From: a virus
Lineage: Duplodnaviria; Heunggongvirae; Uroviricota; Caudoviricetes
Direction: 5' to 3' (one strand)
IMG/VR virus record: IMGVR_UViG_2974696732_000001
Length of the DNA stretch: 64,000 bases
Shown here: one piece after another, positions 14,585 through 46,055 of the stretch
Layout: every line of letters begins with the position of its first letter
Position numbering within the stretch: position 1 is the stretch's first letter
Notes under the pieces: model-generated
The model's input: only the letters and a program-made list of their open reading frames with translations
What the model was told of the DNA's origin: nothing
Databases searched by the model: none
Made by a program: the position numbers and the translations under genes

Positions 14585-15106
14585 ATGACGGTACTTCTAC
14601 GGACAATCCACGGAAGCCATCTGTATGGCCTTGCGCACGCAGGTTCAGACCGAGACATTTACGAAGTAATTGCCACGAAGCGAACCAAGCGAAAGCGCAA
14701 CATTAAGCAGACCATCGTGAATGGAGTTGACAAGACGGTCGTTGACCTCTCAACATTCATGCATATGGTTAATGAATGCGTACCTCAAGCACTTGAAGCG
14801 CTATGGACGCCGGTAGCGGAAGTTGATAAACTTCACGAATTCCGGACACAATATCGAGTGAATCGCGCCAAGATGAAGGAAGTATACATTCGAACCGCTC
14901 TGAACTTCGCCAAGAACGATGGAGTAAAGCAAAAGCGTCACGCTATTCGCCTGCTTCTCAATCTCGGTGCAGCTCTGGAGTATGGTAAATTCAATCCCCA
15001 GCTTTCCAATATGGACAAGTTCATCATAAACTCTTCCATGGGTGAAACTGGAGCATACGAGGATGTCTTCCTAGGCGTCCTTGATGAAGTACAAAAGTGG
15101 GTCTGA
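14585..15106 (+). CDS. putative minimal nucleotidyltransferase (Pol-beta superfamily-like)
   Basis: HGSHLYGLAHAGSDRDIY resembles the GS-x9-13-D-x-D NTase motif. Confidence 0.4.
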   Translation: MTVLLRTIHGSHLYGLAHAGSDRDIYEVIATKRTKRKRNIKQTIVNGVDKTVVDLSTFMHMVNECVPQALEALWTPVAEVDKLHEFRTQYRVNRAKMKEVYIRTALNFAKNDGVKQKRHAIRLLLNLGAALEYGKFNPQLSNMDKFIINSSMGETGAYEDVFLGVLDEVQKWV

Positions 15107-15200
15107 TGGCTCACGCCAATGGGGCGTATACCCTCACTCTGATAAAGTGTAGAAAGGTTAATCGGTTACATGTGGGTTCAATTCCCACCGTCCCAACTGG
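15097..15200 (+). ncRNA. noncanonical tRNA-like element (family member)
   Basis: GTGGGTCTGA..AATCGGTTACA..T-arm GTGGGTTCAATTCCCAC. Overlaps the stop of the upstream gene. Confidence 0.3.
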
Positions 15201-22936: not shown

Positions 22937-24580
22937 ATGTCTAATGCACTTAACAACGCAGCTAAGGGTCTCAACAAGACTCCTCAGTCTGTCAAGGCCA
23001 AGGCAGGACAGGTCAAGAACAACGCTGGTGGATTCGTCTTCCAGGTTTCTGACCAGGCTCGCCTTGAGCGATTCCTTATCCTTGGTGTTGATGGTGGAAC
23101 CTATTACGTAAAGGAAGCCGACCACGCGCGTTCCAACGTACAGTTCCTCAATGACATGATTGAGCGAGACGAAGCCTCTGTACTGAACACAATCGTTGAT
23201 GTATCTGTCAATGGTCGTGCGTACAAGCAGTCTCCAGTCCTGTTCGCACTAGCCTCTGTCATTGTCCACGGACGTGACAAGCAGTCCGTCAAGGCTGTAT
23301 TTAATCGTGTTGTTCGTACTGGTACACACCTCTACGAGGTTGTGAACTACCTGAACACCATGGGTGGATGGGGTCGAGCAAAGCGTGAAATCGTTGCTAG
23401 TTGGTTCGAGCGCGATGCCGATAAGCTTGCTTACCAGATGGTCAAGTACCGTTCTCGTGAGTTTGCTGGCAACCGTTGGACCATGCGTGACGTAATGCGC
23501 AAGGCTCACCCACAGAACATGAACACTTCCGCTGCTGACTTTGCCCTCGGCAAGGAGCACGATGCTGTTGATGACCTTCGGGTTATTGAGGGTTTCAAGC
23601 TCATGCAGAAAGCTCAGTCTGTTGAAGACGTGCACAATGTTCTTCGGGCGTACGAGATGCTTCCTTGGGAGACTATCCCAACTCAGTTCCTCAAGGATTT
23701 GAGTGTCTGGAAGCGAATCTTCGCCAACGGTCAGCTTCGTGGTCAGGCTCTTGTCCGAAACATCACCCGTCTCGCACGGCTTGGTGCTTTCCAGGACATG
23801 CGTTTTGCTGCTGCTTATGCAGGACAGCTCACGAATCAGGAGATGATTGCGCAGACTCGTCTGCACCCAATCAACTTCCTGAACGCGACTGTTGTGTATA
23901 ACGATGGTCAGCTAAAGCGTGCCAAGGACCGCTGGGGCTACGAGAGTGAGCAGCGCGTAAAGGATTGGACGACTGAAAGTGTCATTGTCGATGCTCTCGA
24001 TGAGGGTTTCCACAAGGCATTCAAGACCGTCCAGCCTGCCGGTAAGCGAACGATGCTTGCTATTGATGTGTCAGGTTCCATGAGTGCAAAGGCTAACGGT
24101 CTCGACCTTAGCTGTGCTCAGGTTTCTGCTGCAATGGCAATGACCATCGCTCGTACCGAGCCAGCTCACATCATCCGTGGATTCACGTCTGATGGCTATG
24201 GTTGGAGGAACAGTGGTCTGACTGACCTCGGCATCTCCGCTCGTACAAACCTTGCTACGGCAATGCGTAATGTACAGCGAAGCAACTGGGGCGGCACAGA
24301 TTGTTCCCTCCCAATGCGTTGGGCTCTTGAGAACAAGGTAGAGGTTGACACCTTCGTGGTTATCACTGATAACGACACGTGGGCTGGCGACGTTCACCCA
24401 TTCCAGGCGCTCAAGGAGTACCGTAAGAAGACCGGAATCGACGCTCGCATGGCAGTTCTGGGAGTTCAGGCAACTGAATTCACCATCGCTGACCCAAGCG
24501 ACCGTGGAATGATGGACTTCGTAGGGTTTGACAGCAATGCACCTCGTGTGCTCGCTGACTTCTCCGCAGGTCGCATCTGA
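22937..24580 (+). CDS. rsr: Ro60/Rsr-like ribonucleoprotein (TROVE domain + vWA)
   Basis: 547 aa with an N-terminal TROVE-like region and a C-terminal vWA MIDAS motif AIDVSGSMS, matching the Ro60 architecture. Confidence 0.65.
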   Translation: MSNALNNAAKGLNKTPQSVKAKAGQVKNNAGGFVFQVSDQARLERFLILGVDGGTYYVKEADHARSNVQFLNDMIERDEASVLNTIVDVSVNGRAYKQSPVLFALASVIVHGRDKQSVKAVFNRVVRTGTHLYEVVNYLNTMGGWGRAKREIVASWFERDADKLAYQMVKYRSREFAGNRWTMRDVMRKAHPQNMNTSAADFALGKEHDAVDDLRVIEGFKLMQKAQSVEDVHNVLRAYEMLPWETIPTQFLKDLSVWKRIFANGQLRGQALVRNITRLARLGAFQDMRFAAAYAGQLTNQEMIAQTRLHPINFLNATVVYNDGQLKRAKDRWGYESEQRVKDWTTESVIVDALDEGFHKAFKTVQPAGKRTMLAIDVSGSMSAKANGLDLSCAQVSAAMAMTIARTEPAHIIRGFTSDGYGWRNSGLTDLGISARTNLATAMRNVQRSNWGGTDCSLPMRWALENKVEVDTFVVITDNDTWAGDVHPFQALKEYRKKTGIDARMAVLGVQATEFTIADPSDRGMMDFVGFDSNAPRVLADFSAGRI

Positions 24581-36488: not shown

Positions 36489-36560
36489 GCATGTAAGCCA
36501 GGGATAAGCTAGGCGGGCCTGTAAAGCCCTACCTCGATGGTTCGAATCCGTCTACATGCA
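36489..36560 (+). tRNA. tRNA with anticodon GTA, type I (second Tyr-type)
   Basis: Acceptor GCATGTA/TACATGC perfect, anticodon loop CTGTAAA, short variable arm. Confidence 0.6.
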
Positions 36561-36621: not shown

Positions 36622-36758
36622 GAACAAGAAGCCCAGCCGAGGGGCAAAGGATATCCTATGGTGGCTGTATCATAAAAGTAATGTACTAGGCTGTGAACCT
36701 AGGTAAGAGGGGGCGGTACCCTCCAGTCACCCCAAGTAGGTCAAAACCTACATCGATG

Positions 36759-38778: not shown

Positions 38779-39012
38779 ATGCACGAAATCGACCGGTGGG
38801 AAGGAGAGGGAGGCCACTTGCATTACGACCTAACTCATAGAGAGAGAATAATGAAAATTCTCAAAGAGGCCGGTATTCGTTTTGAAGAAGATACATTTGG
38901 AGAGGAAGGAACAGACCAAGATATCACTGTCTATCCCAACAACGATGAGAGAGTCTACTTCTCCTTTCATCCAGATGGGTTTCTAGACAATATCAACGTC
39001 TTTTATTCATGA
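38779..39012 (+). CDS. hypothetical protein
   Basis: 77-aa ORF. Confidence 0.4.
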   Translation: MHEIDRWEGEGGHLHYDLTHRERIMKILKEAGIRFEEDTFGEEGTDQDITVYPNNDERVYFSFHPDGFLDNINVFYS

Positions 39013-39566
39013 AGATTTTTTACGACACAGAGTTCTTTGAGTGTGGACCCAAGCACCCAATCAGATTCATCAGTCTTGGGGCAGTACGTGACGACGGCAA
39101 CGAGCTGTATCTCATCACGAACAACCTCTACACGCTCAACAGAGCAAACCAGAATCCATGGCTGGCCGAGAACGTCATCAAGCATTTGCCGGTAAAGCAG
39201 AACAAGGATGGAAGGCTTGCATGGGACATCCAGCATCCTGACTATGCTCGCGTTCTGCCGAACGAGGTGATTGCTGGACTATGGAGAGATTTCGTTCTGG
39301 ACTACGATGCCGAGTACGAGTTTGACAAGCCTGAGCTATGGGGCTACTATCCTTCATATGACCACGTAGTCATCAGCCAGCTCTTTGGCAGGATGATTGA
39401 CTTGCCAGAAGGCCATCCTATGTATACAATGGACATCAAGCAGCGCTGGCACAATGAAGGTCGGCCTGGCCTGCCTGTGCAAGAAGCCAATGCTCACAGA
39501 GCACTTGACGACGCACGATGGAACAAGGTAGCATATGAGTACCTTGATGAGTACGCCAATAAGTGA
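39009..39566 (+). CDS. DEDDh 3'-5' exonuclease (DnaQ/RNase T-like)
   Basis: Exo I IFYDTEF, Exo II YDHVVI, Exo III HRALDDA. Sits immediately upstream of the tmRNA. Confidence 0.65.
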   Translation: MKIFYDTEFFECGPKHPIRFISLGAVRDDGNELYLITNNLYTLNRANQNPWLAENVIKHLPVKQNKDGRLAWDIQHPDYARVLPNEVIAGLWRDFVLDYDAEYEFDKPELWGYYPSYDHVVISQLFGRMIDLPEGHPMYTMDIKQRWHNEGRPGLPVQEANAHRALDDARWNKVAYEYLDEYANK

Positions 39567-39576
39567 CTCATCGCCT

Positions 39577-39842
39577 GGGGATGCCTTGGTTTCGACTGGG
39601 GTGGATGACATTAGTTTGCAGCCCGACATTGAGGAGATGTCGTTAAAGAGCCTCAAACCCATAAATGCCAACTCTAAGTTCGCATTCGCTCTTGCTGCCT
39701 GACGGTAGCTGAGCGGGGCTAGTGGGCGGCCTGGCAACAGAATAGCCCACCACAAACTTTCTTGTAACACCCCTTGACACATGGCTGTGTATAGACTACT
39801 GTTTGAAGCATCAGGACGCGGGTTCGACTCCCGCCATCTCCA
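39577..39842 (+). ncRNA. ssrA: tmRNA (SsrA), tag peptide ANSKFAFALAA
   Basis: 5' end GGGGATGCCTTGGTTTCGACTGGGG resembles the bacterial tmRNA 5' end. Tag ORF GCC AAC TCT AAG TTC GCA TTC GCT CTT GCT GCC TGA at 39667-39702. 3' T-arm GACGCGGGTTCGACTCCCGCC. Acceptor pairing GGGGATG/CATCTCC. Confidence 0.8.
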
Positions 39843-39914
39843 CGTGGATTACGAAACACTAATGAACAAGTGGATGAAAGTAATCAGAGATAAGAAAGGT
39901 TCTGTTACAGAATC

Positions 39915-39943
39915 TTGACACAGAACACTCGATACAGTACAGT
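39915..39943 (+). promoter_or_regulatory. promoter TTGACA-N17-TACAGT
   Basis: Upstream of the NlpC/P60 gene. Confidence 0.45.
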
Positions 39944-40083
39944 TGAATGCACGTGAGCCTACCGACCTATTAGGAGGAATCTATTCCTCCAACAGAAAGA
40001 AAGCTCAAGCACAACTCAATAGGACAAAATTAGGATTCCCGATGAATACCTAGTTGCGTAGGCTCCACTAACATTGGAGTTAT

Positions 40084-40542
40084 ATGTATAAGTCAGCGAT
40101 AGCTGCGATACTGGTCGCCTCTGCTATTGTGGTGGCAACGCCCGGTCAGTCAGAGGCAGCAACATTGAAGTCAAAGGCCCTTGCTGTTGCTAAGGCGCAG
40201 AAGGGAGATAGATATCAATACGGTGCTGAGGGACCAAATGCTTTCGATTGTTCCGGACTCTCTTGGTATTCATACAAGAAGGCTGGCAAGACAGTCAAGC
40301 GCGTAGCTAATGACCAGTACAACGCTTCTAAGCACATCAGTGCAAGCGCTGCACAGCCAGGAGACCTTGTATTTTTCAAGTACAAGTCTGGTGGTAAGGT
40401 CTTTCACATGGGCATTGTGTCCAAGAAGGGGTACATGGTCCATGCAAATGCTGGTGGATACTATGGCAAAAAGGTAATTGAGGAGAAGATTGCTCCATAT
40501 TGGGGTAAGAATTACAGAGTCTACTACGGCTCTGTCAAGTAG
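40084..40542 (+). CDS. NlpC/P60 peptidoglycan endopeptidase (endolysin-like)
   Basis: Signal peptide, catalytic Cys in DCSGLSWY and downstream His residues. Confidence 0.7.
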   Translation: MYKSAIAAILVASAIVVATPGQSEAATLKSKALAVAKAQKGDRYQYGAEGPNAFDCSGLSWYSYKKAGKTVKRVANDQYNASKHISASAAQPGDLVFFKYKSGGKVFHMGIVSKKGYMVHANAGGYYGKKVIEEKIAPYWGKNYRVYYGSVK

Positions 40543-40544
40543 GA

Positions 40545-40874
40545 GTGAAAATGGCTCGTGAGTACAAGATTTGGGTTGACGATGAGCGACCCAAGCCTGA
40601 CGACAGTTGGACACCAATGAAGAACAGCACAGTTGCGATTCTTCTGTTGAAAGCCCTCAAGCGTCGTGGTATTGTACCACGGGCCATTTCGCTTGACCAT
40701 GACCTTGGATTGTCCAGGGTTACAGGGCTTGAGGACACGACTCGTTCCGTGGTACTGTGGATGTGCGAGAACGACTTCTGGCCGACAGAGGTCTACGTTC
40801 ACACTGCCAATCCTGTTGGTCGTGAGTGGCTTGAAGGCATGGTTGACAGATACGGACCTGGAGTGTCACGATGA
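40545..40874 (+). CDS. hypothetical protein
   Basis: 109-aa ORF. Confidence 0.45.
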   Translation: MKMAREYKIWVDDERPKPDDSWTPMKNSTVAILLLKALKRRGIVPRAISLDHDLGLSRVTGLEDTTRSVVLWMCENDFWPTEVYVHTANPVGREWLEGMVDRYGPGVSR

Positions 40875-42310: not shown

Positions 42311-42426
42311 GTTTGACCCCCCTTGACAACCAGCTTAGCCAAGTGTTAGGCTGGTTGTCTCATGCCGGGGAAGTTCTTTGGTAAGAACAGTCTCTCTATA
42401 GTGTTCATTTGATTGTGCACGGTCTC

Positions 42427-42455
42427 TTGACACCTCCTAGTAGCGCTGCTAGGAT
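42427..42455 (+). promoter_or_regulatory. promoter TTGACA-N17-TAGGAT
   Basis: Followed immediately by the minihelix at 42458. Confidence 0.45.
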
Positions 42456-42457
42456 GA

Positions 42458-42494
42458 CAGAGTAGAAAGGTTGGAGGTTCGATTCCTCCCTCTG
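42458..42494 (+). ncRNA. tRNA minihelix-like element directly downstream of a promoter
   Basis: CAGAG..CTCTG stem enclosing GGAGGTTCGATTCCTCC. Begins about 3 nt after the -10 at 42450-42455. Confidence 0.3.
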
Positions 42495-42590
42495 GCACTT
42501 AATGAAAACTATCAATTCGAAGAGTGGAAGGAGCGTAATGATTTACGACCCTGGTTAGTGTAGTCACTAACTTTGAAGGAGTGAATTATT

Positions 42591-43336: not shown

Positions 43337-44434
43337 ATGAAGTTCACCAAGATTTTCTCTCAGGACTTGCTTGACCAGATGGTCAACGAGGGTTTTGTTC
43401 GGGTGCAGACTCATCCGGTTCTCCCTCTGCGAATTCTGAACTACTCTGAGAAGGCTCAGTTTGCGGGTCGATGGAACGCCTGCACGCTTGCGTGCCGTGG
43501 TCTCATCATCGACCAGGACGACAATGTAATTGCTCGTCCTTTCGAGAAGTTCTTCAACATGGGGGACTCTCACGCTGCTGACATCGACTGGGATGCTCCG
43601 GTTGAGGTGACGGACAAGAAGGATGGCTCCATGGGCATCCTTTACTCGATTCGTCCTTACAACCCTGACATGCCGCCTTACGGTCACGAGTACAGCTTTG
43701 CTACCCGTGGTAGTTTTGCTTCTGACCAGGCAATTCACGCTACTAAGCTTTGGCTTGAGCGTTACAAGAACACTGCCGTGCCTCATGACTGGACGTTCAT
43801 TTTCGAGATTGTCTACCCTGACAACCGAATCGTCCTGGATTACGGAGACATGGACGACCTTATCCTTCTGGGTGCGGTCAACAAGGAGCACGGTTACGTG
43901 TACGGTCCTCGTGAGGCTGCGGCTTTGCTGGATTGGCAGGGGCCGGTAACCGAGGTGTTCGATTACAAGAACATTCACGAGGCTGTTGGTGCACCTTACC
44001 GCAGCAACGCTGAGGGTCTTGTTATTCGTTCTGGTGGCAAGATGGTCAAGCTCAAGCAGGCTGATTACATTGAGCTTCATCGACTCATTTCAATGCTTTC
44101 AGAGCGCTCTGTATGGAGTCAGCTCACTGAGGGCAAGACGATTCTGGAGATTTGTGAGGCTCTGCCTGACGAGTTTCACCAGTTCGTCAAGGATGTCGGT
44201 GGCAAGTTGCTCAGTGACTTCGAGCGCATTGAGATTGAGGTGCGTGGAATCTTCCACAACCTTCTTTCTTCAATGGACGAGGGGTTCACTCGACGCGATT
44301 TCGCAATGAAGGCCAACGGAGTTGACCACTACCGCAGCCACATGTTCAACCTGCTTGACGGGAAGGACATCAGTGAGCTAATCTGGAAGCAGTTGAAGCC
44401 CGCAGCCAAGAGTGAGGATGGATACCCGCAGTGA
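43337..44434 (+). CDS. RNA ligase, T4 Rnl1-like
   Basis: ACRGLII and EKFFNMGD match the Rnl1 N-terminal region. Motif I is KKDGSMG (the KxDG lysine adenylylation site). Confidence 0.75.
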   Translation: MKFTKIFSQDLLDQMVNEGFVRVQTHPVLPLRILNYSEKAQFAGRWNACTLACRGLIIDQDDNVIARPFEKFFNMGDSHAADIDWDAPVEVTDKKDGSMGILYSIRPYNPDMPPYGHEYSFATRGSFASDQAIHATKLWLERYKNTAVPHDWTFIFEIVYPDNRIVLDYGDMDDLILLGAVNKEHGYVYGPREAAALLDWQGPVTEVFDYKNIHEAVGAPYRSNAEGLVIRSGGKMVKLKQADYIELHRLISMLSERSVWSQLTEGKTILEICEALPDEFHQFVKDVGGKLLSDFERIEIEVRGIFHNLLSSMDEGFTRRDFAMKANGVDHYRSHMFNLLDGKDISELIWKQLKPAAKSEDGYPQ

Positions 44435-45149: not shown

Positions 45150-46055
45150 ATGGCTCAGCTTCTCATCCTCCGGGGCGTTCCTGGATGTGGAAAGTCCACT
45201 TTCGCTCACCAGTGGCTCAAGGAAGGTGAGCGGCGTGCTCGTGTAAACCGTGACGACATCCGTATGCAGTTCTTCGGTAAGGAGACTGGTGTGGATGAAG
45301 ACATGGTTACCAAGATTGAGCACCAGCAGGTAGACATGCTTCTCAAGTCTGGATACTCTGTGGTTGTCGATGACACCAACATCAGGTTCCAGTACATCAC
45401 AGCTTTCGTTAAGATTGCTGCGAAGCATGGCGTGCCTGTTGCAGTAAAGCAGTTCGATGTGGACCTCAAGACTGCCATTGAGCGCAATGCACACCGTGCT
45501 TCTCAGGGTGGTCGTGATGTCCCTACGCACGTCATCGAGAGGATGCACAAGTCTCTCAAGTCTTCTGGTCAGTACACTCGGAAGCACATCGAAGATGCTT
45601 GGGGAACTTCTCAGTCTGTGCAGCCTTACGTTCGGCCAGTAGGCAAGCGAAAGGTTTACCTCTTTGACATTGATGGCACTCTTGCCCAGATGTCTGACAG
45701 GTCTCCTTTTGAGTGGAACAAGGTTGGCAATGACGACCCCCGTCGTCAGGTTGTTCTGACTGCTCAGGCGCTTGCTGAGGCGGGCTACGAGATTGTTGTA
45801 ATGAGCGGTCGAGACTCTGTCTGCCGTGATGAGACAATTGCGTGGCTGGAGTTCTATGACATCCCCTTTGTTGACCTCTTCATGAGGGCAGAGGGTGACA
45901 TGCGTAAGGACAACATCGTTAAGCAGGAGCTGTTTGACAAGCACATTCGTGACTTCTACGATGTTGTGGCCGTCTTTGACGACCGGCAGCAAGTGGTTGA
46001 CATGTGGCGTGCGATGGGCGTAGACTGCTTCCAGGTCGCGCCTGGAGATTTCTGA
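45150..46055 (+). CDS. pnk: polynucleotide 5'-kinase/3'-phosphatase (T4 Pnk-like)
   Basis: P-loop GVPGCGKST kinase plus a HAD phosphatase DIDGTLA..SGR. Start trimmed to ATG 45150, downstream of the promoter at 45093-45121. Confidence 0.8.
   Translation: MAQLLILRGVPGCGKSTFAHQWLKEGERRARVNRDDIRMQFFGKETGVDEDMVTKIEHQQVDMLLKSGYSVVVDDTNIRFQYITAFVKIAAKHGVPVAVKQFDVDLKTAIERNAHRASQGGRDVPTHVIERMHKSLKSSGQYTRKHIEDAWGTSQSVQPYVRPVGKRKVYLFDIDGTLAQMSDRSPFEWNKVGNDDPRRQVVLTAQALAEAGYEIVVMSGRDSVCRDETIAWLEFYDIPFVDLFMRAEGDMRKDNIVKQELFDKHIRDFYDVVAVFDDRQQVVDMWRAMGVDCFQVAPGDF

Follow-up and report, generated by a model that had tools for sequence, protein, structure and literature searches.

A compact, functional-looking tmRNA with two covarying pseudoknots and a host-like degradation tag in Streptomyces phage Paradiddles

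The window, meaning the whole 64,000-nucleotide stretch of DNA that was analysed (IMG/VR virus record IMGVR_UViG_2974696732_000001), is 100% identical by megablast to Streptomyces phage Paradiddles (MF347637 / NC_042010), and window position 38900 corresponds to position 97607 of the Paradiddles record. Paradiddles is a lytic phage of cluster BE1 (Samistivirus) whose host is S. griseus ATCC 10137. The locus under study holds a tmRNA (ssrA) gene preceded by an exonuclease gene, with the following features:

39009-39566, forward strand: gene for a predicted 185-aa 3'-5' exoribonuclease of the Rv2179c family (RNase T-like, DEDDh), assigned from PF16473 and PDB entries 4oke and 6s0m.
39577-39842, forward strand: the tmRNA (ssrA) gene from G1 to discriminator A266, called by ARAGORN and Rfam RF00023 and present in GenBank as SEA_PARADIDDLES_175.
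39577-39583 paired with 39835-39841, forward strand: acceptor stem GGGGAUG / CAUCUCC, including the G3·U70 wobble (helix 1 of the pair count).
39596-39623 (5' strand) paired with 39783-39814, forward strand: connector helix H2, from RNAalifold on 25 sequences.
39624-39656, forward strand: pseudoknot PK1, with stem S1 at 39624-39628 / 39638-39642 (CGACA/UGUCG) and stem S2 at 39629-39634 / 39651-39656 (UUGAGG/CCUCAA), from the pseudoknot search and the pair count.
39661-39666, forward strand: frame-setting AUAAAU (U at -5, A at -4) immediately before the resume codon, unchanged throughout the 25-sequence alignment.
39667-39702, forward strand: tag reading frame GCC..GCC UGA, 11 codons plus stop, encoding ANSKFAFALAA (ARAGORN).
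39687-39715, forward strand: hairpin H5 with the UGA stop codon in its loop; RNAalifold pairs G112:C138, C113:G137 and U114:A136, the last of them with a UA/CG exchange.
39716-39750, forward strand: pseudoknot PK2, with S1 at 39716-39719 / 39729-39732 (GGGC/GCCU) and S2 at 39722-39727 / 39745-39750 (GUGGGC/GCCCAC), from the pseudoknot search and the pair count.
39751-39780, forward strand: unstructured 30-nt linker replacing PK3 and PK4 (MFE -0.6 kcal/mol).
39818-39834, forward strand: T arm GCGGG / UUCGACU / CCCGC, from the Rfam alignment, RNAalifold and the pair count (helix 6).
39843, forward strand: single C after the discriminator, read from the sequence; the rest of CCA is not encoded.

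ARAGORN places a tmRNA at 39577-39843 with the tag ANSKFAFALAA*, and Rfam RF00023 matches 39577-39845 over its full model (positions 1-374) with 103.8 bits and an E-value of 1.8e-39, against a gathering score of 47. The initial annotation of this DNA had proposed a phage tmRNA here on the strength of its conserved ends and tag. Both programs call the gene at full length, ARAGORN returns the same tag at the same place, and the 5' end (GGGGATGCCTTGGTTTCGACTGGGG, from 39577) and 3' end (GACGCGGGTTCGACTCCCGCCATCTCCA, to 39842, the discriminator A) lie exactly where that annotation had put them. A tRNA-like domain is present, consisting of a 7-bp acceptor stem formed from both ends and a T arm with a GUUCRANYC-type loop. 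H2 stands in place of an anticodon arm and is composed of three helical segments with GC/UA, GC/CG and AU/GC exchanges (RNAalifold, 25 sequences).

The gene itself is already annotated and published. GenBank MF347637 carries SEA_PARADIDDLES_175 at exactly 39577-39842, with a 'DnaQ-like DNA polymerase III subunit' gene upstream, and Hughes et al. 2018 (PMC5764925) reported one tmRNA and 43-48 tRNAs in all eight BE1 phages, Paradiddles included; the Paradiddles tmRNA is known because of both the annotation and this report. Homologous tmRNAs occur in about 90-93 Streptomyces phage records of two subfamilies, many of them with an annotated tag peptide. Phage tmRNAs as such have been known since the early 2000s from mycobacteriophages Bxz1, Catera and Wildcat (PMC1475703), and huge phages also carry them (PMC7162821). 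Not met in the literature searched were the two-pseudoknot structure with its covariation, the exact relation between phage and host tags, the missing encoded CCA and a precise name for the upstream exonuclease.

The structure was assessed across relatives: 17 phage copies from the subfamilies Boydwoodruffvirinae and Loccivirinae (alignment A1), which with related IMG/VR copies gave 25 distinct core-family sequences (alignment A2). Without a prior model, RNAalifold recovered the acceptor stem, the T arm, the three H2 segments, one stem for each of the two pseudoknots and the H5 hairpin, with 41 pairs of which 15 are compensatory. A further helix (AUGC/GCAU) drawn across the resume codon was set aside, since its columns are invariant and it cannot be trusted. 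In the plain MAFFT alignments A1 and A2, the 5' terminus and the downstream strand of PK2 fell out of register; anchor-based extraction and an N-padded, structure-guided mini-alignment (A3) were used instead. In A3, 99.7% of cells are paired, versus 37-57% when the partners are slid by 1-3 columns, and 22 of the 34 tested pairs show compensatory changes on both sides, counts that lean towards the model because the structure guided the placing of the pseudoknot columns (only anchors were used for the acceptor and T-arm columns). The covariation score in A3 is 0.536; the slid controls give no more than 0.082, and none of 500 shuffles reaches the A3 value. The acceptor stem is paired in 100% of cells with compensatory changes at 3/7 pairs; the T arm is likewise 100% paired, with two compensatory pairs. 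G3·U70, the alanine identity pair and the determinant for AlaRS (PMC3985003), is G·U in all 22 distinct sequences of A3.

Two pseudoknots stand out. An exhaustive search of anchor-defined regions gives PK1, which sits just 5' of the resume codon, as the best H-type knot of its region, in a constant position, in nearly every one of the 25 sequences. Its first stem occurs in five covarying variants, and the pair count in A3 finds compensatory pairs at 5/5 positions of S1 and 4/6 of S2 (9/11 together). The same search places PK2 at one position in nearly every sequence, with 11 covarying variants of S2; in the pair count all seven pairs of helix 5 are compensatory, and in helix 4 C:G is exchanged with U:A. 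Loop 3 of PK2 contains an invariant AACAGAA. The helices covary across relatives, which bears out the fold that the initial annotation had wished to see reflected in covariation of the pseudoknots. No pseudoknot above shuffles was found in the 39751-39780 linker.

PK1-PK4 is a typical but non-essential set, and only PK1 and PK2 are found in Paradiddles. The missing PK3 and PK4 do not exclude membership among tmRNAs, because genuine tmRNAs with fewer pseudoknots exist (PMC3985003): in vitro the RNA can do without PK2-PK4, and natural two-piece tmRNAs have PK1 and PK2 only. Pseudoknot losses in E. coli mutants impaired folding or processing according to Wower 2004, as cited in PMC3985003, and the loss of PK3 and PK4 could likewise impair the folding or processing of the Paradiddles RNA.

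The tag reading frame is conserved in its own right. In E. coli the frame is set mainly by U85 and A86 (PMC2481249), whose counterparts here are the U at -5 and the A at -4. Among 20 distinct tag ORFs of relatives, the last four codons occur in 13 DNA versions, all encoding ALAA and varying at third positions only; pairwise comparison gives 454 synonymous and 0 non-synonymous differences. This synonymous-only pattern shows that selection acts on the peptide as well as on the RNA; with the compensatory pairs and the invariant G3·U70, it places the tmRNA gene as a whole under selection. The N-terminal half of the tag varies freely among relatives, and ALAA is constant. The initial annotation had tied its reading to conservation of the tag in relatives, and ALAA holds in all 13 DNA versions. 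The tag of the host S. griseus is ANSKRDSSAFALAA; that of the phage is the same with F in place of RDSS, so that the first four (ANSK) and last six (AFALAA) residues match in tags of 11 and 14 residues. In S. coelicolor the tag ends in ...SSQQAFALAA (PMC2635970).

Other tags were seen in isolated relatives. The tmRNA of phage Tomas (locus L008, 2501-2773) has GAC (Asp) rather than GCN (Ala) as resume codon and the tag DNSNVAFALAA, and that of Mildred21 (locus L003, 2501-2767) has AESNSAFALAA. A 55-aa ORF at 39535-39702, in frame with the Paradiddles tag, was rejected as an artefact of the lack of upstream stop codons; its frame differs from that of the exonuclease gene.

The 3' end reads ...CAUCUCC-A-C-G-U, so that only the first C of CCA (C74) is encoded. 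The same ..CCAC end is found in 16/17 phage copies in A1 and in 31/33 family sequences; the two others are L047, which ends in ..CCA, and L059, which encodes the full CCA. The tRNA genes of the window follow the same rule, with C at +1 after the discriminator in 39/40, C at +2 in 2/40 and CCA in 0/40, and the C-only tendency extends to 56/58 tRNA genes of relatives. The pattern is not special to Paradiddles, because C at +1 is also frequent in unrelated viral contigs (129/147 tRNA genes without CCA); on the host side the comparison covers only two tRNA genes, in the loci around host tmRNA genes. Since C alone is encoded after the discriminator, both the tmRNA and the tRNAs need 3' trimming and CA addition. 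The full GenBank annotation of Paradiddles lists no SmpB, integrase or canonical CCA-adding enzyme, and the nucleotidyltransferase gene at 14585-15106 is of RlaP type. With CCA unencoded and neither a CCA-adding enzyme nor SmpB annotated, the function of the tmRNA would depend wholly on host factors.

The gene at 39009-39566, described initially as a DEDDh, RNase T-like gene immediately upstream, indeed ends 10 nt before the tmRNA. Its product matches PF16473 (Rv2179c-like) with 29.1 bits (cut-off 27) over profile positions 2-173 of 177, and matches both M. tuberculosis Rv2179c structures, PDB 4oke over its full length (E 9e-20) and 6s0m (E about 1e-19). The DEDDh motifs YDTEF, YDHV and H-x4-D align with 4oke. 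Rv2179c is regarded as a divergent RNase T orthologue, structural and functional (PMC8628891). The predicted product is accordingly named here an Rv2179c-family exoribonuclease, which is more precise than 'DnaQ-like DNA polymerase III subunit' (GenBank) or 'Rnase H' (RefSeq).

Within the window ARAGORN finds 42 tRNA genes, spread over 13003-58222. Rfam adds tRNA matches at 15120-15196, 36489-36560 and 36661-36731; two of these three appear in GenBank as second copies of tRNA-Tyr and tRNA-His, and the one at 15120-15196 (30.8 bits) is unannotated. At 42364-42497 on the forward strand lies a 134-nt tRNA-like RNA (Rfam tRNA, 32.8 bits) whose acceptor, D and T arms are intact and in which a structured insert of 72 nt takes the position of the anticodon arm; ARAGORN makes no call there, and the Mildred21 counterpart is annotated 'tRNA-OTHER'. 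It could be a YrlA-type tRNA-mimicking Y RNA, or an intron-bearing tRNA; the Y RNA reading is raised because the phage encodes a Ro60/TROVE protein. That protein belongs to an RNA-repair set within the tRNA block, made up of the RlaP-type nucleotidyltransferase (14585-15106), Ro60 (TROVE + vWA; 22937-24580), a cREC_REC cyclic-phosphate-processing receiver (40545-40874), a T4 Rnl1-type RNA ligase (43337-44434) and a PNKP kinase-phosphatase (45150-46055). The set suggests counter-defence against tRNA-cleaving host nucleases.

Downstream of the Paradiddles tmRNA is a 240-nt non-coding gap (39844-40083). At this position Samisti12, Riptide and other relatives have an ORF of 60-85 codons, annotated as a hypothetical or membrane protein. 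A promoter-like TTGACA-17-TACAGT at 39915-39943 within the gap is a consensus match and is given no weight. No terminator after the tmRNA appeared in the scan, and no Rfam family matches 39840-40090 at E ≤ 1.

Read through what is known of tmRNA biology, the locus very probably encodes a functional-looking one-piece tmRNA of Paradiddles that serves host-factor-dependent ribosome rescue with a host-like degradation tag. The RNA would be transcribed as part of the rightward, tRNA-rich gene block; host RNase P would cut its 5' end, the 3' trailer would be trimmed, and a CCA-adding enzyme would put on CA (or CCA). Host AlaRS would then charge it with alanine, and with host SmpB and EF-Tu it would enter stalled ribosomes. 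The peptide (A)ANSKFAFALAA would be appended to the nascent product, and host Clp-type proteases would degrade the tagged products; degradation by the host is expected because ANSK and AFALAA copy the host tag. The benefit is likely to be extra ribosome-rescue capacity during infection, while host mRNA decays, as a complement to the 43 phage tRNAs. The phage genome, with about 49% G+C, has to be expressed in a host that reportedly has more than 70% (PMC12509530).

Two other readings of the RNA itself have been weighed. It might be a decoy or modulator that titrates host SmpB or AlaRS, or redirects tagging, without CCA and two of the pseudoknots. The unencoded CCA, the absence of PK3 and PK4 and a tag both shorter than that of the host and missing the RDSS in its middle would all suit such a role; however, the C terminus of the tag varies strictly synonymously, and the phage's own tRNA genes also lack CCA as a rule. 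Charging and translation are implied, too, by the conserved stop codon, resume context and G3·U70, and a decoy is very unlikely. The sequence might also be a decaying host-derived fragment or an attachment-site remnant, since host tmRNA genes are integration sites for many temperate actinophages, which then carry the 3' part of the gene. Short cores matching the tmRNA gene are indeed present in phages for which it serves as attB (PMC3029335). The Paradiddles gene, however, is full length, with both ends, tag and pseudoknots; it is only 78% identical to the host gene at aligned positions and shows compensatory evolution; about 93 phages in two subfamilies have kept it, and the genome has no annotated integrase. 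A host fragment or remnant is effectively refuted by the covariation and the synonymous-substitution pattern, and its probability is close to nil.

A different question is whether the exoribonuclease and the tmRNA form a functional module, in which the 3' trailers of the CCA-less tmRNA and tRNAs are trimmed to C74 and a CCA-adding enzyme completes the end. In E. coli, RNase T helps to mature the 3' end of tmRNA and slows down at 3' cytidines. The relation of the enzyme family to RNase T speaks for a module, as does the lone C after the discriminator in the tmRNA and in nearly all tRNA genes of the window, and so does the spacing: the exonuclease gene ends 10 nt 5' of the tmRNA in Paradiddles, Samisti12, Riptide, Sushi23 and Daubenski. 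Yet shared ancestry accounts for the gene order inside a single subfamily, C at +1 is frequent in unrelated viral contigs too, and the two genes do not stay side by side. Mildred21, Tomas, Jay2Jay/Warpy and all BE2 phages have one or two small ORFs or about 215 nt between them; in Loccivirinae the tmRNA comes after tRNA-Arg, no exonuclease homologue lies within the 2.4-2.5 kb upstream flank of the tmRNA in Faust and Wakanda, and the Faust homologue is about 4.7 kb upstream. The family is also widespread: tblastn finds it in 231 phage records, including 64 of Mycobacterium and 17 of Gordonia, and also in small Arthrobacter phages, and many of the Mycobacterium and Gordonia phages that bear it have genomes of 38-58 kb. 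Phages of that size are assumed to lack a tmRNA and to have at most a few tRNAs. A role dedicated to tmRNA processing has no support, because the family occurs in many phages taken to lack a tmRNA and is not adjacent to it in Loccivirinae; the suggestion in the initial annotation that the exonuclease acts on the tmRNA 3' end found no specific backing, and a module is unlikely. Still less probable is a 3'-end pathway run by the phage itself, in which an exonuclease would trim the trailers back to C74, stall there and leave CA to be added. Candidates are the Rv2179c-family exoribonuclease and the RlaP-type nucleotidyltransferase, which share the tRNA block with Ro60, the Rnl1-type ligase and PNKP. 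If it were true, the maturation and repair of phage tRNAs and tmRNA could bypass or withstand host defences directed against tRNA 3' ends.

As a discovery the tmRNA carries little weight: the gene is in GenBank and has been in print since 2018, and the first phage tmRNAs came to light two decades ago. The question of why lytic phages carry tmRNAs is not made newly testable by the Paradiddles finding. A compact natural tmRNA with PK1 and PK2 in a culturable phage-host pair is nevertheless a convenient experimental model for that question.

Among the closest known systems are the tmRNAs of other cluster BE/BK Streptomyces phages (Stanwilliamsviridae) and related IMG/VR contigs, members of one gene family that share PK1, PK2 and tags of the form ANS..A(F/Y)ALAA. 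Within them the Paradiddles subgroup (Paradiddles, Samisti12, Mildred21, Riptide) has the shortest tmRNAs among isolated phages and has lost a third structured element; BE2 and Jay2Jay-type tmRNAs have a 48-49-nt element between PK2 and the 3' strand of H2, at about -9 to -14 kcal/mol. Related tmRNAs lie on IMG/VR contigs L036 (2648-2891, reverse strand), L024, L030, L034, L043, L059, L077 and L079. One IMG/VR group has the tag ANSRSAFALAA and lengths of 316-332 nt, and one copy is 244 nt long with the tag ANKNQFALAA. The IMG/VR copies, from uncultivated viruses, show that reduced phage tmRNAs with actinobacterial-type tags form a broader family in the environment.

Bxz1, Catera, Wildcat and the huge phages resemble Paradiddles, by description, in being large, tRNA-rich and tmRNA-bearing, but they belong to another lineage and infect other hosts, and some huge phages encode SmpB, whereas none is annotated in Paradiddles. 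Two-piece tmRNAs (PK1 + PK2), plastid tmRNAs and E. coli mutants with PK2-4 replaced show that tmRNAs with few pseudoknots can perform trans-translation (PMC3985003); unlike the two-piece molecules, the Paradiddles tmRNA is one-piece and non-permuted.

A further close system is the tmRNA of the host. Host tmRNAs from 117 actinobacterial genomes, mostly Streptomyces, measure 366-662 nt (median 386), whereas the phage family spans 267-298 nt; the 267 nt of Paradiddles against the 387-388 nt of S. griseus agree with the compactness proposed at the outset. Global alignment of these two finds 192/247 aligned positions identical (78%), with the host PK3/PK4 region absent from the phage copy. Phage and host have one and the same acceptor stem (GGGGAUG/CAUCUCC, including G3·U70) and almost the same T arm, and the GGUUUCGAC element is common to both, as is the architecture of PK1, H5 and PK2, including the CCUGGCA motif in PK2 loop 3. 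The S. griseus RNA differs in encoding CCA and PK3/PK4, where the phage copy has its 30-nt linker, and in its longer tag. The Paradiddles tmRNA thus has the features of a reduced derivative of an actinobacterial, Streptomyces-type tmRNA, and ranks among the more reduced one-piece tmRNAs.
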